A DNA stretch of 57,030 nt, filler included, from Malassezia furfur (taxonomy: Eukaryota): NCBI GenBank assembly GCA_052055015.1. It is 2 parts of 2 records of this genome, joined end to end, with 100 filler letters (N's around TTAATTAATTAA, not from the genome) between each part and the next. Parts side by side here need not be neighbours in the genome. Positions count along the whole stretch, not along the records: positions 1 to 28,535 come from JBQJIT010000110.1; positions 28,636 to 57,030 come from JBQJIT010000111.1. The stretch is one strand, 5' to 3'. Positions 1 through 55,915 of the stretch are shown piece by piece. The notes below the pieces were generated by a model. It was not told where the DNA came from and made no database searches. It worked only from the letters and a program-made list of their open reading frames with translations. Both the position numbers and the translations under genes were made by a program. Each line of letters begins with the position of its first letter. Position 1 is the stretch's first letter.

Positions 1-861
1 CGCGCGCGGCCGGTCCACTGCTGCCCGCAGCGCCGTACGCCGTCGCCCCGCGCGACGCCGGTGCCTGGGTGATAGGCGCCGACGCGACGGAGGATGCACC
101 GGGCCCCGCCTCTTCGTGCAGCGCCGAGTACCGCCGCAGGCGGCCCGACTCATCGCGCGGCACGTCTGCGGCACCGCCCAGCTCGTCCCGCGTCTGGTTG
201 CCACGCTTCATAAACTTGGTAAAGATGCTCGCGCTGCGGTGCGAGACCGAGTTGAGCGGCGACGTAAGGCTCGTCGTCGACTGGTTGCGGCTCGACATGG
301 TCGGGGGCGTCGCGGGCGGCTGGTGCGCCTGTGCGCGCGCTGGAGCCGCGGCCACAGGGCCGGTCGCTGTCGCGACCGAGCTCGCGATCGATGCGGTGTC
401 GTTCACCGACGCGTCGTCAAACGAATCTGTCGAGTCATCGTCACTGAGCAGCACCTCGTCGTCCGCGGGGCGCATCGCCCCAGCACCGCGCGCCCCAGCA
501 CCCGCGCCGGGGCGCACTGCACCGCCGGCCGCGCGCTTGGACGCAGGCGGGTCGAATTCCATCGCATCGAGCTCGATCGTGTTGCCGCTCTGCATGCCTG
601 GAGTCAGTGCAGAAACGTACGCTTGTAGAGCGATGGGCATGCACGCTTGGCGACCGCGCTGTGCAGGTACAGACTCTGGTCCTTGCCCTTGTGCTTCACG
701 ACAAACTCGGTGTCGTAGAAAGGCGAGCCCCAGATCGCCGCCGCAATCGCGTCCAAGGCCACATGGCTCACAGTCGCGAGCTTGGGCTCAGACGCGGCAT
801 CAGTGTACACCGTCTCGCTCATCACGATAGGCTCGGCCGCAGTACTCGTCGTCTGGTACAT
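1..861 (-). CDS. Hypothetical protein with possible BTB/POZ-like N-terminal segment and low-complexity tail; runs off left edge
   Basis: ATG 861 (MYQTTSTAAEP...FYDTEFVVKHKGKDQSLYLHSAVAKRACPSLYK). 23-nt intron 598-620 (GTACGT..CTGAC.TCCAG) restores a frame (RMQSGNTIELD...) open to position 1. BTB resemblance is weak. Confidence 0.6.
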
Positions 862-1032
862 GGTGTAAGAAAGCGATCCAGGGACCTTCGCCCCAGGCAC
901 TTAGCCACTCTGCACGCCTGATTCCGCAGCCCGAATCCCCGCGCAGGCGACTTGCATATGTCGTACATAATTCCAGGGGGGGTCGGACCAATCTGCGAGC
1001 TAATAGTCTCCCCACGCATTTGTCACATTACC

Positions 1033-1922
1033 ATGGCGGCTGGCTTCGCACACGCACCCAGCACGAAGGGTACGGTCCAAGGCTTATGCAGCGACGATCC
1101 TGGGGCTCGCATTCACATCGTTGGTGGTCTCATTCGCGGGCGTGAAGCCCTACATCCAATTCCGGATCGTGCCTCATGTGTCGACCTATAATCAGGTGCG
1201 CACGCGCACGGACTCACCCTAGTATTGGCAGCTCGCGACGTACCCACTCGCGTACACGAACAGCTCTGAGCTCTTCGCGGGCTCACTACTTACCTACTAT
1301 GCGGCGCGGCCCGTAGAGCGTCGGTTCGGCGCGCGCAAGTTTGCGGTACGCACCGCAAGCGCTCACGCAGTTCTTCCTCGCACTCATCTATACCCTACAC
1401 CTCGCGCTCTCCCTGCTCTGGGCCCTGCTAGCCATCGCGGCCGTCGCACTGCTGCCCGCACGAGTCCAGGGGTGGTCGATCGTCGCCGACTTCGGCGCCG
1501 GCTACCTCCCGGGCGGGCCGTTTGGCCTGCTCGCTGCGCTCACCCACCAATACTACACACATGTGCCCCCGATGTGGTCCATCCAGATCTCCGACGTGGA
1601 ATTCACCGACCGCGTGCTTGTAGGCATGCTTGCGGGATTGGTATGTCGCATCGCACTCACTCAGCTCGCCATCTCGCAGCCGCCAATGTCGCTCGTGGCC
1701 ATGGGTCTGGGCGTGCTGGCCTCGGTGCTGTACAGTGCGCACATCGGCTCGTTTACGCTTAGCGCGTACAAGATGCCCGACCATATTGCAAGCCCGGCGA
1801 GCCGCTTCCTCGAGCCGTGGCTCGGCACGACGCGCCTGCCGTTCCGCCCGCCGCGCGCAACGTACCGCACTCTGCGACCCCGCGATCCCTCCACGTGGCC
1901 CGCAGGGGCCTCCACCACATAG
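1033..1922 (+). CDS. DSC2: Dsc E3 ligase complex subunit Dsc2 / UBAC2-like rhomboid pseudoprotease
   Basis: Spliced protein MAAGFAHAPSTKATILGLAFTSLVVSFAGVKPYIQFRIVPHVSTYNQYWQLATYPLAYTNSSELF...VERRFGARKFAFFL, multi-TM. Introns 1070-1091, 1196-1222, 1346-1370. Confidence 0.75.
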
Positions 1923-1942
1923 CGTCCTTTCGATACCCCACG

Positions 1943-4360
1943 ATGCTGCCCTCGCTGCGCACGAGTCTGTTCACGACGCCGGCGGGGAAGGGCGAGGCGG
2001 GCTACATGCCAGCGCACGTGGACCACGTCATGCTGTTCTGCCCCAAGCTCACGCAGCACCTCGCCGCCGAGGACCCGGCACGGCTCGCAGACCAGGTCCT
2101 ATTCTATACCTCGATCGCCAACCCCGTGTCCCACGCGACCATTGCGCAGCAGACGGCGCTGGCGAATGCCCTGATCGATTTTGCCTCATCTCAGCATAGC
2201 AAGGCGCATGCGTCTACTCACACAGGTTTACGGAAGGTCGCCGTCACGTCGACCGGCCGGCGCTTGGTGTCTGTGGAAGTGCATCCCCAGTACTGGATGC
2301 ACGCGGTACGCTAGCTTGCTCACACAGAGCATTGCGCTTCCGCAGATCGCGGAGGACACGCTCCCATGGAGCGTCCCGGAGTGGCTGCAGCAGCAAATGC
2401 AGAACGCTTGGGATGCATGGCAGCTTCAACACGGCGATCCTAACCAGGTGTTGAGCGAGCGTGGTCGTGAAAAGCTCGAGCAGGAGCTCGAGCCCTTCTT
2501 CTCGAAATGGGTATGGCAGTGGGATGTCGAGCGCCAGATAGCCTCGCCGTTGCATGCATCCTCACCGCCGCCCCCTCGCGTCGGTATCGTGGCCGAGACT
2601 GGTGCGTCGCTGGGGTCGTGCATGGACACTCCCGCATCGAGCCTCGCAAAGCCGATGGCATGGCTTAGAAAGGCATCTAAAGACCTCTCGGATGCTCCTG
2701 CCGAGACCTTGCTGCTGCGCGACGACCAGGTGCTCTGGCCACAGGCCCACACGCACGAGGCAGAGCAGAGCGCCTTGGATGCGCACGACCGCCGAAAAAT
2801 CGCCATGTATGTCTTGGCACGCTTGGTCCGGCTCGACCAGGCACGTGCAGACGAAGCAAAGGCATGGGCCAACTTGCGTCAGTCGAAGCACTCGGAACCG
2901 CCCACGTACCTACCCAATGCCCTGCCGAGCACGGACCGTGTCACCGGTTTCTTCTCGGACAGTTCTTCGTGGCTCGGATTGGACCGCATGTGGTCAGCCG
3001 CTAAAAAGACTGCGGAGTATACCAAGGCATCCACGGTGGGCAGTGGCAAAGCGCCAGATGCGTCACGCCGCACTACCCCACCCACAACGCGTGCCACGCA
3101 CGACCATTTCCGTCCGACGGCGCCTGGCGCGGCCGGTGCATCTTCCCCCGAGCTTTCCGAGACGTTGGATGTGCCTGAGCCCGACAATGCCACGGAGTCG
3201 GACGACGCCTCTGAGCCCGACGCACCTGATGCGGATCTGTCCGGTGTGCCTGCAGACGATTTGGCCGAGTCGGTCGATGCTCTTGCGACCATGGGCCTCA
3301 ACAGTGGACACGCGACTCCTGAGGCACAAGAACACCATATACCCTTTCCCGTGCGCGAGCAAAGCGCGCTCTTTTCTACCAACGCTCCTTTCCAGACTCT
3401 GCACGAGCAACTGAACCAGGCGCTTGGCTCGGACGATAACGACACGGCGCCTGCCTCGAGCTCAGCCACAGGTCCGCGGCATTCCCATGCGCATGCCGCT
3501 TACGCTGCAGCAAACCCACTCACTTCGGTGTCTCCTTCGGTGCCGCAGGGACCTGTGGAGAAACCGGCGGGCGCGCTGCAGTCCCGAACGAGGCCAGTGC
3601 CGGCAGACCACGCTGAAGAACCCGCGGCGAACCACACGAGCAAACAATTCCCGCCCCTCCCCGCGTCACGTACATCTTGGTACCACGCGCCGCAGCGAGC
3701 CAAGACCGCTGACGCGCCATTCCCTCACGACCCAGCGCTCGATGGATGGGGCCAGGAGGTGCCGCAGGCTTGGCACCATGCGCAGCTGCATCTGGGACAC
3801 GCAGGGCAGTCGCCCGTATACATTACGTATACGACGGTACGTGCTGTATACTGACGCAGCGCAAACTCTTGACCGTGATCCATGTGTGGCACACCAAGCC
3901 ACAGGATGCACAGGCGTGGCTGGACATTTCCTGGGAGCTGCTGCGTCGCGTTCAACGTGTCGTGAACGACGCACTGCTCCGTGCACCGGCCCACTCGGCA
4001 GACTACCTGCACATGGACGACCGATCTGCCCTTGCGCTTAATAACCTGGCACTCGTTCGTGATGCGCCCGTCGAGATGCGCGCAGGTATCGAGGCCCAAC
4101 TGCTGGCCGCCGAGGGGATGCTGCAAAGGTACGTGGGACACGCCGTGAGCTCACACAGGCACCACGTCAAGGAGACACTCGCGCGCGAGGAGCACGGTCT
4201 CTACTGGGTGGCCGCGCGTGCCGCGGCACATGCGGACCGCGAGAATGCGTCGCGCACGTTTCTTGTGCTGCACGGGAACGAGCAGCGGCGGTACGGCATT
4301 GCGGAATGCGACCAGCAAATGCGCCGCTTGGCAGCAAGACACAGTGCATTCAATCTGTAG
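1943..4360 (+). CDS. CCZ1: Vacuolar fusion protein Ccz1-like (longin-domain Mon1-Ccz1 GEF subunit)
   Basis: DQVLFYTS...QQTALANALIDFA and LEPFFSKWVWQWD segments typical of fungal Ccz1. Introns 2306-2327, 3837-3859 and probable in-frame 4129-4158 join three ORFs. Confidence 0.65.
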
Positions 4361-4418
4361 AACATCTGCTTTGGGCGTGCACGTCGTAGCGACGCAGCGG
4401 GTCGCGCCATGCACATGT

Positions 4419-5064
4419 CTACTCATTCTTCTCCAGATACGCACGCAGCGCGTCGAGCCAGTTTTTGCGCAGCTTCATCGGCCCCTCATGCTTCACAGTG
4501 AAGCGGTACATGTCGTTGCGCTCGTACGAGTCCGGCACCAGCTTGGAATCGGTGAATGCCACGCTCCCAAAAATTGCCTCGGGTGGCGAAATGCGACCGG
4601 GCATGGCTATATGGCGCGCGTCTGTGTAAGTCGCAATACGTACCACAAAGATGTGCCCATCCATTTTCGCGCATCTCTGCCTCAAAAATCAGGTTCTCAT
4701 CGGAGGCAATTTGCCCCTGGAGCACATGGTGCAGCGCCTTCCAAAAGTCCTCGTTCATGTTCACGCTGTCAGGGTTCTCGCGAACGAACTCCGAGGGGTT
4801 CGTGTCCCCCGGCTGGATGTGTCCAATAACCGACAAACTCTTGGGTGACTTCGGCGGACGCTCAAGGAGCGAAATGGCCCAGTTTCCGTGGCCCAGATCA
4901 TGGTAGAACAGGCCGGTTTCGGTGTCGACGTCCCGCTTCACCGCTTGGAAGAGTGGCACACTGGCGTGCAGGCCGCGCACTGACACGGAGGTGTACATGG
5001 GTTGAGTGCGCATAGCGCTCGTGCGCAGCGCGCGCAAGCCGATCGGTGAGCAAAAACGAAGCAT
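4419..5064 (-). CDS. Conserved fungal hypothetical protein, probably mitochondrial
   Basis: Arg/Ser-rich, acid-free N-terminus (MLRFCSPIGLRALRTSAMR...RGLHAS). 22-nt intron 4622-4643 joins ...GWAHLC to DARHIAMPGRISPPEAIFGSV. Confidence 0.7.
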
Positions 5065-5170
5065 GGAAGAAACTAAGGACCCTGAACCAGATCTAGGGTC
5101 GCGGGGGTGGGGAGAGGTCCGAGCACCAGTGCGAAATTTCGAGCGTTGTTAGTCAGCTGTGCCAAGCATC

Positions 5171-6533
5171 ATGGAACAAAAGACACTGGAACTGGGCATC
5201 ATTGGGATGGGCGACATGGGTCGCCTGTACGCCAACAAGCTGCATGCAGCCGGGTGGGAGAATGTCATTGTGTGTGATCGTCCCGAGAACTACGAGCGAC
5301 TCTCCGCCGATTTTAAGGGTACGTGCTGTGCTCACCCAAGACTCGGGCATCACCGTTGTTCGTGACGGACACCAGGTCGCGCGCCGCTGCGACTATGTCA
5401 TGTACTCGATCGAGGCGGGCAACCTAGACAAGGTTGTCTCACAGTACGGGCCCTCGCACAAGGTCGGCGCCATCGTTGCCGGCCAAACCTCGGTCAAGGC
5501 TCCGGAACAGGAGGCCTTCGAGAAGTACCTGCCCAGTGATGTCTCAATCATCTCGTGCCATTCGTTGCACGGACCACAAGTCGATCCGACGGGACAGCCG
5601 CTGGTCATCATTAAACACCGCGGATCGGACGAGCAGCTGCGGCTCGTGGAGCGCATCCTGAGCGCGCTCAAATCACGTTTTGTCCACATGAGTTATGAAG
5701 AACACGATCTTATTACTGCGAATACCCAGGCAGTGACGCATGCCGCTTTCCTAACCATGGGAACGGCATGGAGCCAATCGCAAGAGTATCCGTGGGAGAC
5801 GGGTATGTACCCCGGCGGGATCGAAATGGTGAAGATCTATCTGTGCCTGCGCATCTACGGCGCCAAATGGCACGTCTACGCCGGACTTGCCCTGCTCAAC
5901 CCTGCCGCGCGCGTCCAAGTGAAGCAGTATGCAGCGAGTGCAACGGCACTGTTCAAGCTGATGCTGGAGGGAAATCATGACGAGCTGGTCCAACGTGTTT
6001 TTGCAGCGCGTCGCAGCGTGTTTAGGTGGGCCGACGACGAGGAAGGCGCCGAGACGCTGATCAGTGATGTCATGCTCGACCGGTTTTATGTGATTGCACA
6101 GCGCGTGAACCACGGCGAGGAGAGCGCGGAAGAGGCTGCCAAGGCCGTCAAGTCGCTGAATCCCCCGCCCAATTCCCATCTGTCGCTCCTGGCCATTGCC
6201 GACTGCTGGCATGTGCTCAGCATCGATCCATACCGCCATCTGGAGCTTGCTGCTACGCCTGTATTCCGTATGTGGATCGGTGTGACACAATACCTGTTCC
6301 GCAAGCCAGAGCGACTGCTGGATGCATGCCGTGCGGCGATGGACATTACCCAGTTCCGTTCGGACGATCTCGAGTTTGTGGTCGCTGCGCGCGGCTGGGC
6401 CCAGGCGGTACAGTTTGGCGACTTTGATGCGTATCGGAAGCGGTTTGAGCTGACGCGCGAATTTTTTGCGCCGCGTCTCGCACAGGCCAACAAAGTGGGC
6501 GCCGAAATGCTCAAGCAGCTGCGGACTCCGTAG
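5171..6533 (+). CDS. TYR1: Prephenate dehydrogenase (NADP+)
   Basis: GIIGMGDMG Rossmann motif, GQTSVKAPE, SCHSLHGP, EEHDLITANTQAVTHAAF. 22-nt intron 5319-5340. Confidence 0.93.
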
Positions 6534-6538
6534 CCTTC

Positions 6539-7575
6539 TTATCGCTCCAATACCCAGTCACGATAGGCACTCGTTGTTCCCCAGCGAGGATCAAGCAGCG
6601 TATAGTCGAGCCATCGCTGCAACGCTCTTCGCCGCGTCTCCAGGAACGTCGGCATGTATTTGTGCCATATGCCTGTATGGCGAGGCGGCAAAGCCGGCAG
6701 GGCTTTCGCGTGCTGGGGCACTTCCTCCTCCAGCCGTTTCCGGAGATCCATGAAGGAATTATACCTTTTGTACGATTGGAGCACAAGACCCTGTGTGTAA
6801 GCTGAACACGTACCGACTTGGTGGTGACAACCACATCAAAGGCGACCCATCCTCGGGCATACGAGCCAATCCGCTGCCAGCCACGGATTCTTACTTCGGT
6901 CGCAAAGCACTCGTCCTGCATGGAGTCTTGTGTCGGGGCAGCAGGCGTGGAAGCCTGCACAGGCCTCTTACTGTAGAGTGTAGGCGACGGCGGTAGCGGC
7001 ATAAGAGACACCAGCGAGCCGGAGTCTGGCAGCCTCGGTGAGGGTTTTGAGGCAGGCGTCAAGGAGCTTCTTCGCTCTTGTTGCGGGGATTGCACTGTGA
7101 TGAATGCCTCCCGGGGAGGTTCGGTGTCGTGTGCCGTCGCCTCGTCCGCTGCGGTTGTGTCTGCTGCCTCGTCATAGTCTCTCGTTAGCGCGTCCGGGAA
7201 ACTCTCCATAAAGAACGAGGGCGGTTCAGTGATGCTTGGCACCTCTTGTAGCGGAGGAGATCTGGTGACACACTTCCCGGCGAACAGGCGCGATCGGGCA
7301 GCCAATTCCTGTTGAATTCCGTCGTGGAATGCCATATGCCGCGGAGGCCGTGGCGGAGTGTCGGCATCGAGCCATACGCCTTGCCCAAGAGGCAGGGAGT
7401 TCCAGTCGCTCCGTCGTGAATCCGTTTGTTTCGAGGCCCTATCTGTGTCGCTGGTACCATGCCCTTCCTTCGTCTCTTTGGCATCGCGCAAAACGATGAG
7501 ATGCGATGTTTCGCTAAAATGGGGATTGCGATGCGGCCGTCCGGAGGATGGCTCGGATGGTCCAGCCTCGGGCAT
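6539..7575 (-). CDS. PX-domain protein, Ypt35-like
   Basis: C-terminal PX domain (WVAFDV...KRYNSFMDLR...LPALPPR...FLETRRRALQRWL...LLDP) assembled across 23-nt intron 6791-6813; long disordered N-terminus. Confidence 0.75.
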
Positions 7576-7743: not shown

Positions 7744-8466
7744 ATGCCCTGGATCAGCCCTGTTGTGTTAGTGACCGTCGCATTTGGCCTTCTATGTTTT
7801 GCATTGGCAATAGCACGGCAGCGGCGCAGTCACAAGCTGCGCCCTGCGGTGCCTGTGCGCCTGGCAGCTTTGCTCGGGTCAGGTGCGTCTCGCGCTAATG
7901 AAAGGTGGACACACGTCCGAAATGCTCGCACTGCTGAGCTCCCTCCCCGCCGATGAGTATGCACCATTTGTCTACATTGTATCATCTGGCGATACACATA
8001 GTGCTGCGAAGGCGCGCGCCTTTGAAGAGCAGTACCGGGCCACGTCCAAACCGCGCACGCAGCTTTGTGTGTCAGTCCCCCGTGCACGGTCTGTGGGGCA
8101 GAGCTGGCTCACTACGCCATTCACAGTGGCTTGGAGTTTGTTGTTCTGTGCATGGACATTTGGGCTGGCGCCTCTGTATGCCCATTGGCGGCACGGCACA
8201 CGGCTTCCTTTTGTCGACGTGGTTCTGATGAACGGACCTGCGACGTGTGTTCCACTTGCACTGGTTGCCTATGCGCTACGCGTACGTTTTCTGGCTCACC
8301 CAAGCTCGTTGGGCTACCTTCTCCACGCATGGTGTACGTGGAGTCCTTTGCACGCGTGCGGTCGCTGTCACTCACTGCGCGAATTTTGCGGCATGTGGTG
8401 GACGAGTTTGTAGTACAATGGCGAACAGCCGATCCGAGTGCGACCTATTGCGGTCTATTAGTGTAA
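7744..8466 (+). CDS. ALG14: UDP-GlcNAc transferase subunit Alg14
   Basis: N-terminal TM; LGSGGHTSEM (across intron 7883-7904), PRARSVGQS, NGPATCVP, YVESFARV (after intron 8282-8304). Confidence 0.93.
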
Positions 8467-8488: not shown

Positions 8489-8843
8489 TTATTTCTGAAC
8501 GGGAGGGGTGATGTGTTGCTGCGTTCCTGCGGCGGGCACATTCATGGGCACGGCCGTGCCGGTGGGTGCGGCCATGGGCGTTGCGGTCGGGTATGCAGCA
8601 CCCGAGCTGACTGTTGCCTCCTCGTCATACAGACGGCGGTTGGCCTCGAGCTCGAGCTCGCGCTGCCTCGCCTCTTGGCGGTAGTCGTCCGTCGGCAGCG
8701 GCTTGTCGCCGCGCCAACGGTCTCCACAGCAGTTGATGTGGTTGCAACACGGGCACATGTCGCCTCCCCACCGACCTGCGCGTTAGTTAGAGCAACGTAC
8801 AAGGCAGGGACCACAGCAGTATATCACAGCACGCGTCCGCCAT
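8489..8843 (-). CDS. Small protein with Cys-rich N-terminus (orphan, about 109 aa)
   Basis: ATG 8843; canonical 25-nt intron 8776-8800 (GTACGT..CTAAC.GCGCAG) gives MADACCDILLWSLPCRWGGDMCPCCNHINCCGDRW... in frame to TAA. Confidence 0.65.
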
Positions 8844-9091: not shown

Positions 9092-10413
9092 TTAATTGCC
9101 CGACGAGCAATTGCCGCCGCCGCAAACTCCACCGACGACCGCGGCAATGATGATACAGATCAACACGACTGTGTAAGCACTCGTATAGCCACGTACCCAG
9201 GATCCAGAAGCAGATCCAGCGCATCTTGCGGCGCTTCTTGGCCGAAATGACCGCCTTGTCCGTCTGCTGACGCCTGTCTGTGAGTGGAATGCACGTACGC
9301 TGCCTGGACCTCTTGCTCCGTGTGCTGCGCGTGGTCCTTGATCACGTTCAGCTGCTCGTCCTGCTGCTCGACCAGGATCGACATCTCCTGGAACAGCGCA
9401 GCAAGCTCCGTGATCGTCTGCTCAATACGCTGGATGTCGTTGTGACGCTCCTGCACCTCGCGCAATGCACCGCGCGCCTCGCCTTGGCGGTTCGAGTTGC
9501 GCAGCGCCTGTGCAAAGATCTGCTGGCCGCCCGACGAGCCGTCTAACGCGCCCTGGATCTCCTCCTGCGTCGCGTCCGGCTTGACGATGCGCAGCTGGCG
9601 CTCGGTACGCTGACGGTATTTGGTGCGATAGGCCTTTTCAACCTCCTGGTAGCGCAGGATGGTCTCCTTGAAGCGGTTCTTCGCGGCACCGATCTGCGTG
9701 AGGCGCACGTTGCGGTCAATGCCCTCGGGCGCGGGGCCCGACGCGGGAATCCGGACGGCCTCGGCCTCGAGCGCCTTAATACGGTTCTTGACCGCGTTCG
9801 TCAGGCTGCTCGTCTCCTGCGCAAGCGCAGTGAGCTGCGACTCAGCCTCGAGCTGCGACGCCTCGCCGACGTTGTTGAGCGAGCGCGAGTGCAGCTCCGA
9901 GATCCGGTTGATGTTTTGGTCGATCTGACGAATGGCGTCCTGGATGCCGCTAATCTCGCTGAAGAACGAGCCGCTGTTGCCGTCGGGCATGCTGATCGCC
10001 GTGCTGCCGGCAGCGCCCGCACCATACGACTGGCCGGGTGCGGGACCCCCATACGTCGCGGGCCCGAGCCCATCGGCGCTGGTCACCACGTTGGTGTTGC
10101 GCGGCTGCATTTCGTACGAGTCCTGCGGCTGAGCGGCGATCGCCGAGGCGGGCACGTTCGACTGCTGGAAAACACCGTGCGACGAGGGCGTGTATGTGGT
10201 CGTCTCAGAGTACACACCGACGGGCGTCGTGCCCACCGCGTTGTTCGTCTGCGGCAAGCCTGTCGCCGGGTCGTACGGGACGCCGCTCGTCTGCTGCGTC
10301 GGGAACAGGTGGTCGCCGTAGCCGTTGTTGCTCGGCCCAGTTTCCGCGCCGCCGTATCCGCCGGACCCAGCCGCCTGCTGGGCCCGCATCGCTGCCAAAC
10401 GATCGCGCGCCAT
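9092..10413 (-). CDS. SSO1: Plasma-membrane syntaxin (Sso1/2 t-SNARE)
   Basis: Habc plus SNARE motif (ALREVQERHNDIQRIEQTITELAALFQEM...EQQDE). Introns 9274-9298 and 9169-9196 yield the basic linker KKRRKMRW and a C-terminal TM. Confidence 0.92.
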
Positions 10414-11361: not shown

Positions 11362-11469
11362 CGTCGAAAAGACGAGGGTACACGTGACCTCCATGCCGCG
11401 CTCGGTGTCGGAGCTGTTGGCGCAACAGGGCGGCGGCGCGGCGCCCAAGGTACGTGTGCGCACGCACTC

Positions 11470-13254: not shown

Positions 13255-13294
13255 CCTTCTGTACTTCCGTAGCCGTGATCCCTAGATGGCTTCG

Positions 13295-46029: not shown

Positions 46030-46462
46030 TTAGGCCTTCATGGCAGGCTGGGGCTGGAAGCCGCTGTTGCGGTTAATGCGCCAGCCACAAATGCCACACG
46101 TCCAGATATGCTCGGAGCGGAAGGGAATCTGCGTCAGAATCTCATCGCCAATATCAACGTACCAGCGGGACCCAGCAGAGCTCAAACCACGTCCGGCTCT
46201 TTGCCTCAACCACCTGCGCATTGTGGCAGCGGGGGCAAACGTAGGGGGTTCCGTCACCTTCCTGCGAGGTCTTGTCGGGGCACCCGAAGACGATAGGAAT
46301 ACAGAAAAAGAAGTCTCCCTAAAAGAGTTAGCGATTGTTCCTGGGGAAGGCGCATGGACCAGTGTCGCGTGCACAAACCGGATCATGTTTATGATCCATA
46401 TGTCCCAGGCCACCTAGTCCAGCAAATGATGCGAGCAGATCTTGCCCATGAATACATACCAT
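46030..46462 (-). CDS. Small zinc-ribbon protein (zinc_ribbon_15-like, about 85 aa)
   Basis: ATG|intron 46319-46459, intron 46129-46162. Gives MGDFFFCIPIVFGC...VCPRCHNAQV...WFELCWVPLIPF...WTCGICGW with two CxxC knuckles. Confidence 0.8.
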
Positions 46463-46593
46463 ATTGATGCTTTACGTCGCAATAAAGACGATGGCAAGAA
46501 GCGGATCACCAAAAGCCCGTGTGCCTAAGCGCCGCCCAGGGCTACCCCGGCCGACGCCAATGCCGACGCCGAATGCCCGTCTACATCATATGA

Positions 46594-47409
46594 CTAAGCA
46601 TTGCATGGTCCCTGCGCCTCGCTCCAGTAGACTGCCAAGGCTTTCAGCTTGTAGCCAAGCCAGAGCTCCTCGACTTGTACGCCAAAGTGGGCGTTGGGGA
46701 ACATGCTAGTCAGTTGGTCGACTTCATGTAGATCCACATTGCGTGGTAAATAGAATACAATCTTGTCGCAAATGGTCCGTGCCTGGCGAAATAGTTCACG
46801 CCCACCCACGGGACGAAGTAGGGAAAGAGGGTATATATCGGTATATTCTTGGTCCTTTTGCTCCGAAGACAACGCAGGGTTCAGATAGTCCACACCACCC
46901 CATGGTGGAGAAAAGAACACCACGTCAATTTTGCGGCGGTGCCAGCTTTGCCAACGGTCGGTATCTTCTGTGTCACCAGCTCGAGCACGAGCAAAGTCAC
47001 AAAAATCACCACACAGAAAGGTGATGCGGTCTTCAACACCATAGATGGCTGCATTATTCCGAGCCAGTGCAATTTTTAACGGGTCAATATCAATAGCCAC
47101 GACGTGCCCACACGTCATGGCAAACTGGATGGCATTCCCGCCCGCTCCACAGAACGCGTCGAGGATGACCTCGCATGCACATTGGGTTGCGAGACGATAC
47201 GCTACTGCTTCTGGCGTCACTGAAAACCAGGATTCTTCATCCAAAAGGATACCCTCTGAAAAGCGCGAGAAGAGATCATGGCGTGCGTGCCAGTACTTAT
47301 GCATGGATGGAGGAAGATCCTGTTTCCTGCGAATAGCAACTTCTTGCGCTCTTTCTGCCGTTTCAGGATCATCATATAGATCCTCGCATCGTTGTTCCTC
47401 GCCTGGCAT
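46594..47409 (-). CDS. TGS1: Trimethylguanosine synthase
   Basis: KYWHARHDLFSRF, ESWFSVTPE, DAFCGAGGNAIQFA, SPPWGG, YLPRN. Confidence 0.93.
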   Translation of the reverse strand: MPGEEQRCEDLYDDPETAERAQEVAIRRKQDLPPSMHKYWHARHDLFSRFSEGILLDEESWFSVTPEAVAYRLATQCACEVILDAFCGAGGNAIQFAMTCGHVVAIDIDPLKIALARNNAAIYGVEDRITFLCGDFCDFARARAGDTEDTDRWQSWHRRKIDVVFFSPPWGGVDYLNPALSSEQKDQEYTDIYPLSLLRPVGGRELFRQARTICDKIVFYLPRNVDLHEVDQLTSMFPNAHFGVQVEELWLGYKLKALAVYWSEAQGPCNA

Positions 47410-47468
47410 CGTGGAGGACGTTCCTCACGCGGCAGGAAGGAGGGCGTCTCCACATGGTCGTTCAATTT

Positions 47469-48502
47469 CTATTTGACTTTGTAGAGCGCCTGGGCCGTCG
47501 TGCTATGCAACTGGGTGTTGACCTCAGAAAGAGTGTCGGTGACCTAATATGAGCGCAATAGACATACCTTCTGGACCTCTTTGAAGTCATCCGCGGGTCC
47601 TTGCAGTGAGTAACAAGTGGTACGTCCAATCGCTGGCATGGTGCAGAGCAAGAGATCGACACTGGCATGTGTCGCCTCCTCGAGCGAGGGATCAACCAGC
47701 CACTTTTGGTGCACTTTGCCTTGGAACGGGAGGGAAGGGATAGCGGACTGCCATCAGTAGTTTCACGTACGGCTGTACTGCCAGTGACGAGGCCATACAT
47801 CTCGATTCCCGCCTCTGCTAGCGCTGCGCTCGCAGCTGTTGTGGCCAATGCGATGCAGCCAGACACCGACGTGTCCATATCCAACACAGTGATATAGACA
47901 TCAATTGATGCTTTAGGAAGCAAATCCAGCCGGATCGCTGGGAGCAAAGCCTGCTTCACCAAAGCGGCAGAGCCTGGCGACTCGACGTCCTTTCCTGGCT
48001 TGAAACGGTGGACGTCACTGAACGGCGCCATGTTGAAAGCCACGTTCAGCTCCGCCTGGCCAGCATATTGGCGACCACGCACCTGGCGCGGTCCGTGACT
48101 GGAGTGAGTAAAAGTGACCTACACAGCGCATGCGAGTTTGGTGCGTCCGCATTCTAGCAGTGCGCTCCCACTGGCATTGGGAACCAGCCCGGTTTGGACA
48201 TCTTAGGTAAGAAGAGACAACGTACGCATAGGTCGAGCTTCCCTCTCATCACGCCCTTCCCCTCGATCCGCAAAATTTCGTCGGGCAATGCGTGGAATCT
48301 CGAGCTTGTCGTCCCCGACCGTCATGGACGCCCGCTCGAGCCCAATGCTAGCTTTCCATGTCGGGTCAACAAGCAGCCGCTGCTCGTCAAGAGCCCAGAC
48401 TGGCTGATCCGTCGTGATCTCATCACTTGTATTCACATTAAACAGAGGGAGAAACGTTTCATCCGGGCCATTGACCCGCCGGCGATCGTACAAGGCAGTC
48501 AT
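47469..48502 (-). CDS. MTR3: Exosome core RNase PH subunit Mtr3 (EXOSC6)
   Basis: DRRRVNGP N-terminus, TGLVPNASGSALLE, VHGPR, LPKASIDVYITVLD, SAALAEAGIEM. Introns 48202-48225, 48099-48122, 47748-47770, 47544-47567. Confidence 0.82.
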
Positions 48503-48606: not shown

Positions 48607-49711
48607 TTAAAGAGCCAGCATAGTGGCCGCCAGCGTCGTCGCAGCCGCTGCGCCGATCACGGCCGAGGAAATACGGACGGTCGAGGCAGACGACTTGGCA
48701 CTAGACTCGTACACGTACAAGTTGCCGACCGACCAGTAGGCGTCCTGGAAACTCTGGCCAGCCTGACCGACCTGGTTGGCACACGACTGGTACTTGGCCG
48801 GGCATTGCGACACCTGGTCATATGCATTACCTGCCCAGTCACCACACAGCGTGATGTCAAACACAATCTTGTGCGCATCGAACTGGCTCGAGCCGTCGGC
48901 GTTGTTCGAGCACGAGAGTTTTCCGAAGTTGGCCGCGGGCGTACCCCAGTTGTCGGGGTTCACGGAATTGCCTGGCTTCGAAATATCACTGGGCATGTTG
49001 TCCGACTTGTCCCAGAACCACATGCGGATACCCTTGCCATCTGAGCTAAAGTCGCGCTGCATCGCAACAACGGCACCGCCGTTGTTGTTCACCTTGGAGC
49101 CCCAAGTGGCGGTGTCGGTGTTGTTCATCTCAATCCGACAGCCACTGTTGTTGTTGGCTTCGGCGTTACAGTTGGTGAAGACGGTCGTGCCGGTCTGCGG
49201 GTCACCGTTGATCGAGCAGTCATCCTGAACGTGCACAGCCGCCAAGTTCGCAGGGAACTGGTCGTTGACGTTCTCCATGATGTCGATCTCACCACCCACC
49301 GGCCACTGCGACGTGTTGGCCGTCACCGTCCAGAACGCGGGCCACACAGCGCAACCCGTGGGAATGTGCGACACTTGCAAGCTGGGTCAGCAAGAGTTCC
49401 ACTTACACAATCACGGCGTCCTCGTAGTTGGACTGCGACTGGATGCGCACACTGGGGCGCCCCTCCGTGCGCGTCGTTTCAGTGTCCACGCGCATGACAA
49501 AGTTCTTGTTATCATCCACATAGGTGAGGTTGAGCGACTTGGCGTTGTCCTCGCTCTGGTAGGTCACGAGACCGTTGGTGGGATCCTTGTCCGTCCAGAA
49601 GTCAAACTTGTTCATGTAGTCCTCGCCCGAGTAGGTGTCCTTCAGGTTCCACGTAGCCGCGCGGGCGAGCGCAGCGGCGCTCACACCTGCAATGATCGTG
49701 CCCAGCCGCAT
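48607..49711 (-). CDS. GH16 endo-1,3(4)-beta-glucanase, secreted and probably GPI-anchored
   Basis: Signal peptide, DPTNGLVTY, WPAFW, catalytic EIDIME, ITLCGDWAG, hydrophobic C-terminus. Intron 49382-49406. Confidence 0.9.
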
Positions 49712-49861: not shown

Positions 49862-52375
49862 ATGCGTCGGAGCGCGATCGCAGCGGTGCTGAGCGACCGC
49901 TCCAACGAACCCAAAGATGGACAAGGACGTCAGCTGGCCAGTGGCGGGGGATTCGGTCCGCTGCTAGGCCAGAAACCGTTCAAGCCACCGACCGCGGCGC
50001 GACGCGAAGGTGCGCTGCCCTCGCTGCGGAAACGCACGCGCGTCAACTATGCGGGCATGGGCGGCGAAGGCGAGGAGAATACCGATTCGTATCGCCAGCT
50101 TGAAGAGCCACGAAAAAAGAGCTCTCTTGAGGGCGTGTACAAAGGTATTGACGCATCGGGCGTGTCGCTCAACGCCGATCGACGCAAATGGGCCGTGTAC
50201 CAACCGAAACCGGATGCGCTCGGACGCCGGTTCCTGGTGCCCACGATGCACAACCAGCGTGGAGAGACGATTGAGACGCGCATGAGCTACGCGGCACTGG
50301 GCGTGCGCCGCCCCGTCGAAATTCCGCCGCGGCCTTTGCACGACCCCATGGGCGAGCATGCGATTGTGCTCTTTGACCCGACGATTGACGACAAGGATCT
50401 TGAACGGGAGAAGGAGCGCCTGCACTTGGCGCAGCAGGAGCACGAGCGTCAGCTTGAATGCGCGTCGCATGGGCCGCACAAACGCCTCGCGTCGATCCTC
50501 GGCATCGATAAGCCCAAGGTCCAGATCGAGGACAAGGTACCGGTCGTGATTGACCCCCGCCTTGCCAAGATTCTGCGGCCACACCAAGTCGAGGGTGTCA
50601 AGTTCTTGTACCGATGCACCACTGGCATGGTGCAGGAGAACGCGCATGGGTGCATCATGGCCGACGAAATGGGCCTCGGCAAGACACTGCAGTGCATTGC
50701 ACTCATGTGGACGTTGCTGCGGCAGTCGCCGCGCGCGGGTAAGAGCACGATCCAGAAGTGCATTATTGTGTGTCCCTCGAGTTTGGTGCGCAACTGGGCG
50801 AACGAGCTCGGTACGTGTGTACACTGACGCAGTGAAATGGCTGGGAAATGCCGCTCCAGGTGCTCTTGCGCTCGACGGCAAGCTGAGCCGCGAGCAAATG
50901 TTTGAGACCGTGCAGCGGTGGTGCGAGAGCAGCGGGCGCTCCATCTCGCACCCGGTGATGATTGTCTCGTACGAGACGCTCCGCAATCTCCAGGAGCTGT
51001 TGGGCAACACCGAAGTGGGCCTTCTGCTCTGCGACGAGGGGCACCGGCTGAAGAATGCCGACTCGCTTACGTTCCAGTCGCTTGACATGATCAAAGTGAA
51101 GCGGCGTGTGATTCTGTCCGGCACGCCGATTCAGAACGACCTGTCCGAGTACTTTTCGTTGATCAACTTTGCCATCCCTGATGTGCTGGGCAGTCGCGCC
51201 GAGTTCCGCAAGCAGTTTGAGCTACACATTCTGCGGGGCCGCGACGCAGACGCCACCGAGCAGCAGCAGCAGCTCGGCCGCGAAAAGCTGCAGGAGTTGT
51301 CGGGGCTGGTAAGCCAGTTTATTATCCGGCGCACCAACGACATCCTATCCAAGTACCTGCCGGTCAAGTACGAGCATGTGGTGTTCTGCAACCTGTCGCC
51401 CTTCCAACTGTCGCTGTACGACCTGTTTGTCAAGTCGCCCGCGATCAAAAAACTCTTGCGAGGTGTGGGATCGCAGCCACTCAAAGCAATTGGCATTCTC
51501 AAGAAGCTGTGCAATCACCCCGACCTGCTCGACCTTCCCGATGACCTGGAGGGCAGCGAGAAATTGTTCCCAGAGGAATACAAGCCCCGCGATCGCCGCC
51601 ATGTTGCCGTGGAGCTGTCGGGCAAGATGGCGGTGTTGGAGCGCTTCCTCACCACCATCCGCACGACGACCGACGACAAGATTGTGCTAATCAGCAACTA
51701 TACCCAAACACTCGACCTGTTCGAGCGCCTGTGCCGTACTAAGCGCTGGGGCTGCTTCCGATTGGACGGCACGATGAACATCGGCAAACGCCAGCGGCTC
51801 GTCGACCGCTTCAACGACCCAACGTCGCCCGAGTTTATTTTCCTGCTCAGCTCCAAGGCGGGCGGCTGCGGTCTCAATCTAATCGGTGCCAACCGCCTCG
51901 TGCTGTTTGACCCCGACTGGAACCCGGCATCCGACCAGCAGGCACTGGCACGCGTGTGGCGTGACGGACAGAAGAAGTCGTGCTTTGTCTACCGCTTCAT
52001 TGCGACGGGGTCCATCGAGGAGAAGATTCTGCAGCGCCAGTCGCACAAGCAGTCGCTCTCCTCATGCGTCGTCGACGAGGCACTGGATGCGGAGCGCCAC
52101 TTCTCCGGCGAGGACCTGCGCGCCCTGTTCCAGTTCAAGGACCAGACCCCCTGCGACACGCACGACACCTACAAATGTCGACGGTGTCGCGACGGGAAAC
52201 AGCTGAGCCCGGCGCCTGCGATGCTCTATGGCGATACCAGCACGTACGTCCAAACGACTCACCCAGATGGAACCATTATACGCACGAGCACCTTGGCGAA
52301 CTCCACGACGACTTGTTGCGTGCCGAAATTATGCACCCCGACGTCTCGTACGTCTTCCAGTACTGTAGCCACTAG
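49862..52375 (+). CDS. RAD54: DNA repair SNF2-family ATPase Rad54
   Basis: RPLHDP, ADEMGLGKTLQ, CDEGHRLKN, SKAGGCGLNLIGANRL, QALARVWRDGQKK. Introns 50811-50832 and 52244-52266. Confidence 0.96.
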
Positions 52376-52429
52376 ATGAAATCGGGCCCCGATCGCTTCG
52401 CCAGCGCCGTCCGCACGCACTTCCCCGGC

Positions 52430-53915
52430 ATGAGCGATGCGGAGCTGCCGATCGAAACGTTCCTTAAGGCGCAGCCGCGCACTGTGTTGAATCGCTTGTA
52501 TGAGAAGCCTGCAAGTTGCTTGGCCGTGTTCCGGTAGGTGTCGGCCGCGCTCACACACAGCCTGTTGCCGATGGTCGCGCGGCAGATCATTCTCAACATG
52601 CTATTTCTCGATGGGCCGCTTACCGTGGAAGACTGCCTCAAATTCTTCCAGCAGCGCAACACTACGTACGTGCTAGACTAATGCAGCGAGCACCAAATCC
52701 CGCTCGAGCGCATGGAGGGACTGTCGATCGTTAAGCTCCGTGCCGACAAGCTCCACCTGAATGACATCTTTCGCAAGGGCATCGTCGGCGCCTTGAATGG
52801 CAGGTACGCATACACAGCTCACACAGCGGCGACTTTCATTCGTTTGGCACGCCATGCAGCGGCAAAGAACATGAAAGGGTCGGCATCGAGTTCCTTGACT
52901 CGTATGCAAGGACCCAGTGGGAGACGATCCTCTACTTTATGGTGGGCAGCGAGCAATCCACACCGCCGCGGAATACAGTGCTCTTTCTTTTGCAGCGTGC
53001 TGGGCTGATGCAGCGCGATGCGAATGATACAAGGCAGCTGAACATTACATCTGCAGGCTTCCAGTTCCTACTCCAGGATGTCAACTCACAGCTCTGGGCA
53101 CTTCTCCTTCAATACCTGCGCATGGCCGAGGAGCGCAATATGGACCTCGTCGAGGTGCTTGCCTTCTTCTTTACAGTCGGTGGCCTCGAGTTTGGGCGCG
53201 CCTACGAGACACACGGGTTCTCGCTGACCCAAATGCAGACGCTTGAGGAGCTTAGCGACTATGGGCTCGTGTATCGGACGAGCAAATCGGCCAAGTACTT
53301 CTTCCCGACGCGCTTGGCTGCGACACTGACCTCGACGGCGACCACCGCCCTGTCTACCCTTGACGACCAGGAGGAGCAGGGCTACCTTATTCTGGAGACC
53401 AACTATCGCGTTTATGCTTATACCTGTACGCACCAACGTCTGACTCAGCCAATCTCCTACGCATCGCGATTCTCAACCTCTTCGTCACGCTCAAGGAGCG
53501 CCTGCCCAACCTCGTGGTAGGGCAACTGACGCGCGAGAGTGTCAAGTCGGCGCTGAACAAGGGTATCACCGCCAATCAAGTCATCACCTACCTTACCCAT
53601 CATGCCCATCCCCAAATGCACAAAAACGTACGTCACTCGCTCACACAGGACCCGCTGCTGCCCGCCACTGTTTCCGACCAGATTCGGCTCTGGGAGCGCG
53701 AAAAGAACCGCGTGGCTACCTGCGTTGGTACGTCATTTGCTGACCCAGGTAACCTGTATACCGAGTTTACGTCCATCCACGACTATGAGCAAGTCCGCGA
53801 CTATGCCAAAAGCCTGGGCGTACTGCAATGGGAGAGCGAGGCGAAACGCATGCTTTTCGTCACCTCCGAGGGACACGAAAGCGTGCGCGAGTTTATTCAA
53901 CGACGGAGGGTATAA
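52430..53915 (+). CDS. TFB2: TFIIH subunit Tfb2 (p52); alternative upstream in-frame ATG at 52376
   Basis: RLYEKPASCLAVFRLLP, ITSAGFQFLLQD, FFPTRLA, ILETNYRVYAYT, DQIRLWERE. Introns 52534-52560, 52666-52686, 52804-52826, 53426-53448, 53628-53648, 53728-53748. Confidence 0.93.
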
Positions 53916-53956
53916 GCCTACGCAGGCTACGAAAATCAAACAGCTTTATACATAGA

Positions 53957-55915
53957 TTAGGCAGGGGGGAATCCACGGCCGGGCACGACTTTGACGGACC
54001 GGTACGAGTGCGACTGGATCAACGGGCTTCCATTCATCCGCCACTCTCGCCCGGCCCCGCCGCTGCCAAAGTGCCAGGTTTGTTCGCGCCCCAGCAAGGC
54101 AAGGGCCGTTTCGAAGAACCACTCCTCCTTCTTGCAGTAATGGACGACAACTGTGCCTCCCACCTTGTGGTCCCGGTATCTCTGATTCGCCAGTGCATCA
54201 TTAAACGGTGCATAGGTGGCGCCGTATGGGTTCGCGGTCGGAACGTACGACGGATGCCGGGGCGAAGTCATCTCCAGCGAGCAGTTGGGATATAGGGCGA
54301 GTCCGTTTTCGTCCAGCACCTCGACCGCCTCTATTGGCCGCGCCAGGGCACCGCCCGCGGGGTACAAGCGGGGATCGTCGGCCGCAAACACCATGGTGTC
54401 ATGCGAGAACATCCGCTGGGTGTCCTCGTCATCGTCCTGGCGATACCAGGTGGTTGCCCAGCGTCCTCCGCCTTCCACAAGCGCCTCGATGGTCTCTTCT
54501 GCAGAGAGGTCGGGGCGCGGTGGCTTGTACGGCACCTTCCACTGGCTTGTCGTAGAGAAGGATTGGGCAGCATGTGGTCCACCACGGCGCTTCAACTCCT
54601 CGGCACTGAGGCCGCGGAGCATCTCGCCGCGAAGCTCATCCACATGGTCCGGGAACAAGAACCCATGTGCATACGGTGTCCAACTCCGTGGGTGGTCGTA
54701 GATCCAGCAGTTTTCCGCAGCCCATTGCACATCCTGTGCGCGCGGATGCATTTTAATCCACTTGGTCATTTTCGTGTCCTCCTTTCCGCCCCAGTCCTTG
54801 GCGATTTCCTTAGAGCCGGCAAGGTACTGCACCAGGTCATGCGAAAGCGCATACGCTTCGCCCGCCATAAACTGGCCACGAACCAGGTCTGTTGTTAGTC
54901 GAACACCTCATCTGTACGTACAGCCCCAATACAGCATCTTGCGCGGCAAAGCACGCAGGCGGCGCTCCAGCTCGTCCAGCACAATGAAGCTGTCGTCATC
55001 GGCCTTGACAACGTAGTCGGCGAGCTTCCAATGCACGTCGTACTGGCCTTCCAGTGTCGGTGCACCAATGAGCCCGCCTTTCGCGCGCGGGACAAGGATC
55101 GGCACAGTGCCGTTCTCGGCAGCCCAATGGAAGAAGGCGTAGGTTTTGTGACTGTTGCCCGTCTCTTTGGTATCGAGGATGACCAGGTCGTTGTACGTCT
55201 CCATCTCCATCGCAACGCGGTGGGCATACTTCTTGCGCGGGCGGCCAAGCACAAACTTGACTTGCACATTGCCGAGCGGACGGCCCGAACGGGGGTCGCG
55301 CGGCGCTGTCATCGTCGCGTATGTTTGACGGATGGTCTGGCGTCGTTCGAAGGCCTGGTCGTAGCTCATGACGCCAACAAGCACATCCACAGGTGCAAGA
55401 TGCTCAATGTCGGCATGCACAAACGGCCGCTGCTCGGCACAGACGGTGCGCCAGGGCATGCGCTCCTTGTCCGGATCCAGGATGTACTTGATGGTAAGTC
55501 CGGTAAAGACGCCAAAAGCGAGTATGCCAAGCAGGAAAAAGAAGGAAAGAATAGGTCGGCGTTGGATGTAGACTAGCATGTTGCGCATCCAGATCGAGAA
55601 GTACACCAGCGCACGGTGTCGGCGCGTGCGATGGTGCACGTCGTGCGGGTGTGACCGCATTTTGGACATCGAACGAAACGTGCGCGCTTCAAACGTGTCG
55701 TCCTCCTCCGGAATTTGCTCATCCACATACGGGATCTCGGTGGGGTGAGCAGTGGGGTTGTATTGCGGCAGCCATGCGCCCGACTGGGGCATCAAAGGCT
55801 GCTGCGAAGGGTCCATGTCTTTTTTCTGTAAGGAGGAGCGTCGTGCCAGGGAAACACCAAGCCGCGAGCTCGCTCTCCTGTAACGCTCCTGCGCGGCGGG
55901 GCCTGAGGGTGCCAT
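53957..55915 (-). CDS. Glycosyltransferase family 31 (type II membrane protein)
   Basis: TM segment, ERRQTIRQTY, VKFVLG, VVKADDDSFI (DxD), FMAGEAYALSHDLV, GKED. Intron 54889-54921. Confidence 0.85.

Follow-up and report, generated by a model that had tools for sequence, protein, structure and literature searches.

The 57,030-nucleotide (nt) stretch of Malassezia furfur DNA analysed here (assembly GCA_052055015.1), which is referred to below, at its full length, as the window, contains 51 curated introns between positions 598 and 54921, 39 of which are no longer than 30 nt. We consider it highly probable (roughly 0.9), on the strength of sequence and homology, that these are ordinary major (U2-type) GT-AG introns, reduced in length almost to a lower size limit. 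The claim that a Malassezia genome carries canonical GT-AG introns of 21-25 nt, put forward in a preliminary description of the same DNA, is confirmed by this curation. Tiny introns in the genus are, at the same time, already known: the finding is not new, because very short Malassezia introns validated by RNA sequencing (RNA-seq) are already in print. What is added here are the spacing limits, namely, a branch A that never lies before nucleotide 16 and is followed by at least 5 nt to the 3′ end, and clear cases of mis-modelling in public records.

Intron lengths and gene models

The most frequent lengths are concentrated at the bottom of the range, with three introns of 21 nt, eight of 22, ten of 23, four of 24 and five of 25 nt, followed by nine of 26-30 nt, ten of 31-49 nt, a single 64-nt intron and a single 141-nt intron (mode 23, median 25 and mean 29.6 nt, for the 51 introns of this window only). 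The preliminary description had counted 48 introns, 36 of them up to 30 nt, which the recount nearly matched; its numbers for the classes of 21, 22, 23 and 25 nt stand, and the 24-nt class, given as three, has four members. Sorted by length modulo 3, the introns fall into classes of 13, 21 and 17, with no frame bias seen among the 51. Thirteen lengths are a multiple of three and five of these introns are stop-free, where three had been announced earlier; two of the five, both in TFB2, are now backed by homology. In Paramecium, there is a deficit of stop-free introns with lengths divisible by three; the present sample is small and this class is the hardest to detect.

The window has a G+C content of 62%-63% and accommodates 35 gene models, 25 of which contain introns; coding sequence amounts to 50,520 nt, or 89% of the total, giving an intron density of 1.01 per kilobase (kb) of coding sequence. 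Removal of the 51 GT-AG segments leaves all 35 models intact from ATG to stop, one of them extending past the window edge and one spanning a run of N. Pfam matches on stop-to-stop frames correspond to ordinary eukaryotic housekeeping genes, including those for acetyl-CoA carboxylase, beta′-COP, TAF5, RAD54, TFB2, MUS81, cytochrome c1, ribosomal proteins and an exosome subunit. The top protein relatives of a TFB2 exon are from Malassezia (72%-81% identity) and one exon-level MTR3 frame is 99% identical to the MTR3 record of M. furfur; these matches bear out the earlier assignment to Malassezia, and the window comes from the nuclear genome of a yeast of this genus, either M. furfur itself or a species very near to it. 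No RNA genes were detected when the window was scanned with Rfam and for tRNAs.

The models were obtained with a dynamic-programming gene finder, which combined a codon score with the intron signal and caught most introns, followed by locus-by-locus inspection. Discarded at inspection were antisense genes invented by the gene finder and long bridging 'introns' of the same origin (for example, 3472-3735, 12003-12302 and 38177-38385). Three shorter candidates were also rejected: 38363-38385 in a TPR gene, where the signal is weak and the frame intact without splicing; 21851-21903, where the frame, starting at its own ATG, is open; and 39309-39348, which has no gene context.

Junctions fixed from outside the window

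The exact junctions of 22 of the 51 introns are fixed by evidence from outside the window, 15 by alignment to orthologues or solved protein chains and seven more by Pfam numbering; 25 were assigned by frame restoration and four by signal. Across 12 junctions, Pfam numbering obtained on single exons is continuous (TFB2, ALG14, MUS81, RPS15, MTR3, RAD54, RAD6 and cytochrome c1).

The richest case is TFB2, with six introns on the plus strand, which was aligned to 10 orthologues chosen from 120 listed (three from Malassezia, five from other Ustilaginomycotina, and one each from Schizosaccharomyces and Lipomyces). All ten continue gaplessly across the 27-nt intron at 52534-52560, where Tfb2 profile position 25 is followed by 27; the 21-nt intron at 52666-52686, which contains an in-frame stop and, if retained, shortens the protein from 467 to 371 amino acids (aa); the 23-nt intron at 52804-52826; and the 23-nt intron at 53426-53448, where profile position 303 is followed by 307 at residue 3. 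The remaining two, both of 21 nt, in frame and stop-free, are those for which homology had to decide. At 53628-53648, nine of the ten orthologues are gapless and the tenth lacks 12 residues upstream; the residues encoded by the segment oppose a 7-residue gap in human p52, in a region that is variable in yeast and Chaetomium. At 53728-53748, all ten orthologues are gapless, the seven read-through residues oppose a 7-residue gap in the yeast, Chaetomium and human TFIIH chains, and the Tfb2_C profile runs from position 15 (plus two residues) through a split codon to position 20 at residue 2.

The adjacent RAD54 gene contains a 22-nt intron at 50811-50832 (+), crossed gaplessly by two of four records, with the region absent from the other two and the SNF2 profile passing from position 70 to 91 at residue 20, and a 23-nt intron at 52244-52266 (+), also placed by homology. 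The stop codon of RAD54 has its last base at 52375, directly before an in-frame ATG (52376); Malassezia orthologues of TFB2 begin at a later Met, at 52430 (52373-52430, +).

For MTR3 (minus strand), which was aligned to 9 of 46 homologues, the 24-nt intron at 48202-48225 contains an in-frame stop and its junction is gapless in eight of the nine orthologues, the M. furfur record included; the 24-nt intron at 48099-48122 is gapless in seven of nine, with RNase_PH profile position 31 followed by 34 at residue 2. The 23-nt intron at 47748-47770, upstream of which the residues are kept in three of four Malassezia records, and the 24-nt intron at 47544-47567, which has an in-frame stop and is gapless in three of the four, M. 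furfur included, are placed mainly by the Malassezia records.

Solved protein chains fix two further introns. In the gene for serine palmitoyltransferase 1 (LCB1), the 23-nt intron at 44546-44568 (-) separates an exon 1 that reaches residue 91 (113) from an exon 2 that starts at 92 (114) in both yeast Lcb1 chains, the last 19 residues being extrapolated. In the acetyl-CoA carboxylase gene (ACC1), exon 1 ends and exon 2 starts one residue apart in 12 of the 12 listed chains, as expected of a codon split by the 26-nt intron at 19449-19474 (-). This position was also compared among 80 environmental fungal loci, of which 34 had both flanking exons located and 46, with one flanking exon missing from the search result, were dropped. 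In 18 of the 34, the same codon is interrupted in the same phase by a GT..AG intron of 46-104 nt, and 16 carry an uninterrupted TGG codon. The environmental introns resemble the one in the window in their ends and in a CTNAY-like branch site near the 3′ end. Because the same codon and phase hold introns of 46-104 nt elsewhere, the ACC1 segment is a true intron about half as long as its shortest counterpart, in line with the earlier statement that the introns are far below typical fungal sizes. A first scan of metagenome contigs for related Malassezia DNA yielded nothing, and a second recovered only other fungi, with at most 75% identity for nearly all loci.

The last of the alignment-based junctions belongs to an unnamed gene, D, with a 22-nt intron at 4622-4643 (-). 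Without splicing, homology ends at the donor; the 22-nt model is gapless to 6 of 13 homologues chosen from 43, namely, those that continue with ..MPGR. The other seven (among P0170-P0203) diverge or stop right at the intron site, which suggests that many public gene calls fail to splice at this position.

The seven junctions fixed by Pfam numbering lie in six genes. In cytochrome c1, the profile runs from 178 through a split codon to 180 across the 31-nt intron at 20592-20622 (-); in MUS81, ERCC4 position 72 is followed by 74, matched by the second residue of the following exon, across the 22-nt intron at 23289-23310 (-); in the gene for ribosomal protein S15 (uS19, RPS15), S19 position 53 is followed by 55 at residue 2 across the 40-nt intron at 25424-25463 (-); and in the RAD6-type E2 gene, UQ_con position 36 is followed by 39 across the 35-nt intron at 45454-45488 (-). 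ALG14 has two such junctions. The exon after its 22-nt intron at 7883-7904 (+), retention of which is a frameshift, begins at Alg14 profile position 9, and at the 23-nt intron at 8282-8304 (+), residues 1-124 of the 125 in exon 2 cover profile positions 9-115 and residue 4 of exon 3 corresponds to position 120. Finally, Pfam on single exons sets the syntaxin intron at 9274-9298 (-) at 25 rather than 21 nt: the longer end alone gives the SNARE frame, with residues 1-25 of the next exon matching profile positions 21-45, and the 21-nt end (9278-9298) was rejected since it breaks that frame.

Splice signals and the position of the 3′ end

All 51 introns begin with GT and end with AG, which for the 22 junctions fixed from outside is independent of any motif search. 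The donors follow a GTRNGT-type consensus (GTACGT 30, GTATGT 7, GTACGC 5, GTAGGT 3 and six others, one of which is GTGCGT). Each intron contains CTNAY, most often as CTCAC (18), CTGAC (12), CTTAC (7) or CTAAC (6), and the acceptor is CAG in 43, TAG in four, AAG in four and GAG in none. The branch A is nucleotide 16 in six introns, 17 in ten, 18 in another ten and later in the rest, and is never found before 16. It is followed by 5 nt to the 3′ end in 25 introns, 6 nt in 13 and 7-12 nt in the remainder. The 3-10 nt between the branch A and the AG are 71% pyrimidine, mostly C; usually, there are 3-4 C-rich bases, too short for a polypyrimidine tract. Such a tract is typical of many eukaryotes, and is not a strict requirement of U2-type introns. 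The architecture proposed earlier, mostly GTACGT, a CTNAY branch site and no polypyrimidine tract, thus holds throughout, and the 21-mer offered as its example, the in-frame TFB2 intron at 53728-53748 (+), occurs only once in the window, with its branch A as nucleotide 16.

These signals are far above chance. The pattern GTACGYN{2,20}CTNAYN{1,8}AG has 36 matches compared with 2.08 ± 1.5 expected (maximum 8 in 100 dinucleotide shuffles), an approximately 17-fold enrichment. The 36 matches represent 35 donor sites, all in curated introns and on the sense strand, with none antisense and none intergenic. The GTACGT hexamer itself occurs 65 times against 17 ± 4 expected. With the looser donor GT[AG]NG[TC] and the 3′-end rule given below, there are 74 sites compared with 29.9 ± 5.4 in shuffles, 46 of them curated introns and 28 others, the latter being at chance level. 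The strong-donor signal is, therefore, nearly diagnostic, and the weak-donor signal alone is not. Two in-frame motif matches with GTGCGC donors were rejected, 45117-45143 (-) in RAD6 and 11206-11235 (-) in a gene for an L15-type ribosomal protein: the exon frame runs through both, and they are exonic decoys that a gene finder relying on signal alone would splice.

The 3′ ends follow one simple rule: counting from the donor, the branch site is the earliest CTNAY in which the A is nucleotide 16 or beyond, and the 3′ end is given by the first AG, other than GAG, that ends at least 5 nt past this A. The rule reproduces 51 of 51 ends, including all 22 fixed by homology or Pfam, and with a GTACGT donor, 30 of its 31 predicted sites are curated introns. 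It also explains the two cases in which an earlier AG is skipped, one too near the branch (9274-9298) and the other a GAG (45616-45664). The minimal length of 21 nt, the smallest observed, corresponds to the sum of the two limits, 16 and 5. For the 29 introns whose selection relied in part on the motif, there is some circularity in the architecture statistics and in the complete success of the rule; for the 22 fixed from outside, the rule is non-circular.

Alternative explanations

The alternative that survives best concerns the four introns assigned by signal, which are the 24-nt candidate at 1641-1664 (+) in gene B, which has a weak Rhomboid match; the 30-nt candidate at 4129-4158 (+) in the unnamed gene C; the 30-nt candidate at 30173-30202 (-) in a Myb-domain gene; and the 25-nt candidate at 28439-28463 (-), after codon 5 of a RhoGAP gene. 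It is possible, albeit on balance unlikely, that some of these are coding or only sometimes spliced, in which case the true count would be 47-50. The first three are stop-free multiples of three, and in the RhoGAP gene an internal ATG would give the same frame without splicing, so that the frame argument does not apply to any of them. The chance-level frequency of loose-donor matches elsewhere (28 compared with about 30 expected) and the two full motif matches within uninterrupted exons (45117-45143 and 11206-11235) point in the same direction. The homologues of gene B, three hits that are unspliced calls at the level of the open reading frame, are of no use in judging its candidate; two of them read through it, and an alternative donor at 1620 would yield 45 nt. 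Against the coding alternative, GTACG[TC] donors are present in three of the four, all but one of the 31 GTACGT sites that obey the rule are introns, and the two other in-frame stop-free segments, those of TFB2, are real on homology.

Far less probable is the view that the true introns exceed 40 nt and use more distant splice sites, with the short GT..AG segments merely nested inside them, the outcome that had been named in advance as refuting the preliminary description. Public records do vary in the sites used, M. furfur record P0126 dropping six residues at the third MTR3 intron, and alternative in-frame ends exist in gene D (22 or 37 nt), ACC1 (26 or 38 nt) and gene B (24 or 45 nt). Yet the 22 supported junctions are continuous only with the short version: the solved ACC1 chains select 26 over 38 nt, the 37-nt alternative in gene D needs a 5-residue gap, and longer versions would remove conserved residues. 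For these junctions, distant splice sites are largely refuted.

Sequencing or assembly errors, or pseudogene lesions next to which the motif is coincidental, are barely conceivable as the source of the frame breaks, for which the two 44-base runs of N (28536-28579 and 28592-28635), a sign of imperfect assembly, could be invoked: the full signal has 36 matches for 2.08 expected, all on the sense strand, removal mends 35 of 35 frames, the ACC1 intron occupies a position conserved in other fungi, and the MTR3 frame shares 99% identity with an M. furfur protein annotated without three of the segments. Equally remote is removal by a non-spliceosomal route, such as an endonuclease and a ligase, which small size alone would favour, given that all 51 segments have GT-AG ends, a GTRNGT-type donor and CTNAY at a fixed distance from the AG, and that other fungi have GT-AG introns of ordinary size (46-104 nt) at the ACC1 position.

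Several points weigh against reading all 51 segments as shrunken U2-type introns. The set was established from sequence, homology and literature, and the absence of the segments from mature mRNA is inferred from protein homology only. Twenty-five introns were assigned by frame restoration alone and four by signal alone, and these 29 were chosen partly by motif. Many of the orthologues used are predicted proteins, taken from related genomes in which the same introns occur. The second RAD54 junction is crossed gaplessly by only one of four records (M. cuniculi), the other three breaking off. Record P0126 lacks six residues before the third MTR3 junction (47748-47788), as if a weak donor 18 nt upstream were used, a discrepancy due either to a mistake in annotation or to the use of another donor. 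The limits of 16 and 5 nt are based on the 51 introns of a 57-kb window and might not apply to the genome as a whole. Lastly, one full-consensus site, a 37-nt segment at 2873-2909 (-) with GTACGT, CTGAC and AAG, lies antisense to the large exon of gene C and is unexplained; it is the sole rule-conforming GTACGT site outside the curated introns, and may have arisen by chance (with about two expected) or be spliced from an antisense transcript.

Introns assigned from the reading frame and neighbouring genes

The introns assigned by frame restoration are spread over much of the window. At its left end, the unnamed partial gene A has a 23-nt intron at 598-620 (-) with a full GTACGT..CTGAC..CAG signal, retention of which leads to a stop after five codons. 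Gene B contains, in addition to its candidate, introns of 22 nt at 1070-1091 (+) and 25 nt at 1346-1370 (+), each causing a frameshift if retained (288 to 108 aa and 288 to 243 aa, respectively), and one of 27 nt at 1196-1222 (+) with an in-frame stop within it. In gene C, a 22-nt intron at 2306-2327 (+) has a stop two codons in and a 23-nt intron at 3837-3859 (+) contains a stop. The 22-nt intron at 5319-5340 (+) of the prephenate dehydrogenase-like gene (TYR1) would bring a stop after 14 codons, and the NAD-binding exon and the PDH exons are in different frames. Retention of the 23-nt intron at 6791-6813 (-) of a PX-domain gene shifts the frame; the PX profile begins at position 12, seven residues into the downstream exon. 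A small Cys-rich gene, H, has a 25-nt intron at 8776-8800 (-) with a stop within. The second syntaxin intron, of 28 nt at 9169-9196 (-), likewise shifts the frame if retained, and splicing extends the hydrophobic C-terminal anchor.

The L15-type ribosomal protein gene (Pfam Ribosomal_L27A), which we take to encode mitochondrial uL15, contains introns of 28 nt at 10979-11006 (-) and 23 nt at 11171-11193 (-). The start of its model overlaps that of the neighbouring DEAD-box helicase by 17 nt on opposite strands, so one of the two starts is probably further in. The helicase gene (11267-13254, +), with a 26-nt intron at 11450-11475 (+) that distinguishes a 653-aa spliced product from a 594-aa retained one, looks intact, and its match to a DDX23-like domain is weak (E 0.0008, short of the Pfam cut-off). 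This gene and an intact-looking TGS1-type cap guanine-N2 methyltransferase gene (46594-47409, -) may be linked to splicing. The genome is extremely compact, the convergent helicase and ACC1 genes ending 40 nt apart (13252-13297).

Two introns lie in the presequence of cytochrome c1, of 32 nt at 21315-21346 (-) and, with an in-frame stop, 43 nt at 21386-21428 (-). The second MUS81 intron, of 22 nt at 24696-24717 (-), separates HHH_8 and winged-helix domains that are in different frames and is the sole motif site found in this stretch with both frames open. RPS15 contains a 35-nt intron with an in-frame stop at 25279-25313 (-), and a 64-nt intron at 25780-25843 (-), placed by eye, that splits the start codon as AT/G and leaves the model intact; a shorter version (25780-25817), with a poor donor, was superseded by it. 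In the RhoGAP gene, the 34-nt intron at 28222-28255 (-) makes the difference between 622 and 551 aa. The C-terminus of the Myb-domain gene is unreadable because the two runs of N lie at its 3′ end.

The RAD6-type E2 gene has a first exon that consists of the ATG alone, followed by a 49-nt intron at 45616-45664 (-), for which a 42-nt end at a GAG (45623-45664) was rejected on account of an immediate stop; its third intron, of 29 nt at 45196-45224 (-), contains an in-frame stop. A small zinc-ribbon-like gene is built similarly, with an exon of ATG alone, a 141-nt intron at 46319-46459 (-) and a 34-nt intron at 46129-46162 (-) with a stop two codons in. Together with RPS15, these are three genes whose first intron is located at the start codon (45616-45667, 46319-46462 and 25780-25845, all on the minus strand), and the three introns (49, 141 and 64 nt) are the longest in the window. 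The series is completed by a 25-nt intron at 49382-49406 (-) in a secreted-protein-like gene, where the first codon of the segment is a stop, and a 33-nt intron at 54889-54921 (-) in a galactosyltransferase-like gene, where an in-frame stop would reduce the product from 641 to 335 aa.

Comparison with other short-intron systems

The introns of chlorarachniophyte nucleomorphs, relict endosymbiont nuclei, measure 18-21 nt, a similar lower size range with a very narrow spread of lengths. In ciliates, introns are 15-16 nt in Stentor (PMC9505925) and about 25 base pairs (bp) in Paramecium (PMC5014332), and together with Nyctotherus, also at about 25 nt, these organisms share with the window a typical intron below 30 nt and GT-AG ends. 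The branch A of Stentor, at position 10 of its 15-nt introns, is 5 nt from the 3′ end, which equals the smallest distance in the window; by contrast, Stentor allows a 10-nt lariat loop, whereas the branch A in the window never precedes position 16 (PMC9505925). The base composition differs as well, with ciliate introns being AT-rich (75.6% in Stentor) and weak in branch consensus (PMC9505925), whereas those of the window have 54% GC, a strong donor and a clear CTNAY. Moreover, the length distribution in the window, unlike that of ciliates, tails to 141 nt. Myxozoans and dicyemids, with median introns of 22-27 bp and relatives with ordinary introns, are similar to the window in these respects, but have reduced splice-site motifs, in contrast to the strong 5′ site and branch site found here (PMC13644364). 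The window thus shares with ultra-short-intron lineages a typical length below 30 nt (mode 23, median 25), and lacks their AT-rich, weak-signal character.

Public annotation of Malassezia introns

For Malassezia itself, the preliminary description overstated the novelty, several publications having preceded it (PMC5389616, PMC9241646, PMC6473144, PMC7426719). The phenomenon is the one seen in the annotated introns of M. sympodialis, M. restricta and M. arunalokei. The curated annotation of M. sympodialis lists 5350 introns with a mean of 30 bp, 99% of them supported by RNA-seq, compared with means of 50-65 bp in earlier automated sets; manual curation brought the mean from 65 to 30 bp and the number of RNA-seq-supported introns from 1661 to 5271 (PMC5389616). 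The mean of 29.6 nt in the window is close to this value, and its median of 25 nt is below the median of 30 in M. restricta, where the average is 37.2 (PMC9241646). Minimum intron lengths of 20 and 15 were set in annotating M. restricta (PMC6473144), and a review speaks of the 'very short introns' of Malassezia (PMC7426719). In the accessible parts of these sources, the mode, the minimum, the branch spacing and a 3′-site rule were not found in print for Malassezia, the supplementary size figure of one of them being a cumulative plot without readable numbers (PMC5389616). A literature search on ultra-short or tiny introns, branch point and spliceosome retrieved no paper that treats Malassezia as an ultra-short-intron case, and a 2026 paper on the shortest animal introns lists ciliates, Microsporidia and Dicyemida as exceptions, the word Malassezia being absent from its text (PMC13644364). 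That the spacing details and a listing among ultra-short lineages are missing reflects emphasis in the literature and does not make the phenomenon new.

The statement that standard gene finders mis-model these genes is supported by the public records and, like the introns themselves, was already known. RAD54-TFB2 fusions of 871-1245 aa appear in four records, from M. psittaci, M. sympodialis ATCC 42132, M. pachydermatis and M. cuniculi, and break at a 23-nt intron. A 342-aa 'E2 enzyme' record of M. brasiliensis (45066-48031, -) is a chimera of MTR3 (47583-48031), the small zinc-ribbon-like gene (46160-46318) and RAD6 (45069-45693), and skips TGS1. The seven of 13 gene D homologues affected at the intron site belong here too, and three of the 24-nt segments are already missing from the MTR3 protein on public record for M. 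furfur. In automated annotation across the genus, the introns of M. globosa average 76-79 nt (PMC4634964), and a comparative preprint gives this species 0.20 introns per kb and treats M. sympodialis as intron-poor (10.1101/2020.08.11.247098).

Implications for splicing in Malassezia

Of the interpretation given in the preliminary description, the tiny size of the introns and the mis-modelling are supported, and a spliceosome adapted to very small lariats is a hypothesis. The signals outline how such introns might be processed. Each would be recognized as a single unit (intron definition) through its strong donor and branch site, and would leave the mRNA as a lariat closed at the A of CTNAY, the putative branch point. 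The signal comprises a strong 5′ splice site, a short spacer, CTNAY with its A at nucleotide 16 or later and the first non-GAG AG at least 5 nt beyond. With usually only 3-4 bases between the branch and the AG, a reader of the polypyrimidine tract would have no place, and the 3′ site would be picked by its proximity to the branch. A stricter version, in which Malassezia splicing operates at a hard geometric floor (16 and 5 nt), the 3′ site is purely the first non-GAG AG and there is no polypyrimidine-tract reader, is a tentative proposal that we consider more doubtful than probable; if true, it would mean that early splicing factors have been altered or lost, or that small nuclear RNAs have co-evolved. 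Position 4 of the donor is usually A or U, and GTACGT, the commonest donor here, has C there.

The practical point is annotation: default gene finders fail on these genes, and comparative work built on such annotations inherits the error by classing Malassezia as intron-poor (10.1101/2020.08.11.247098). Comparative datasets would then under-count Malassezia introns (0.20 per kb in M. globosa compared with 1.01 per kb of coding sequence here), and the 'intron-poor' label would stem in part from faulty annotation; the spacing rule could be incorporated into gene finders. For splicing biology, the introns provide a transformable fungal genus with 21-25-nt introns and strong signals, and, if the geometric floor is real, Malassezia would offer the most tractable system in which to study the splicing of minimal introns.

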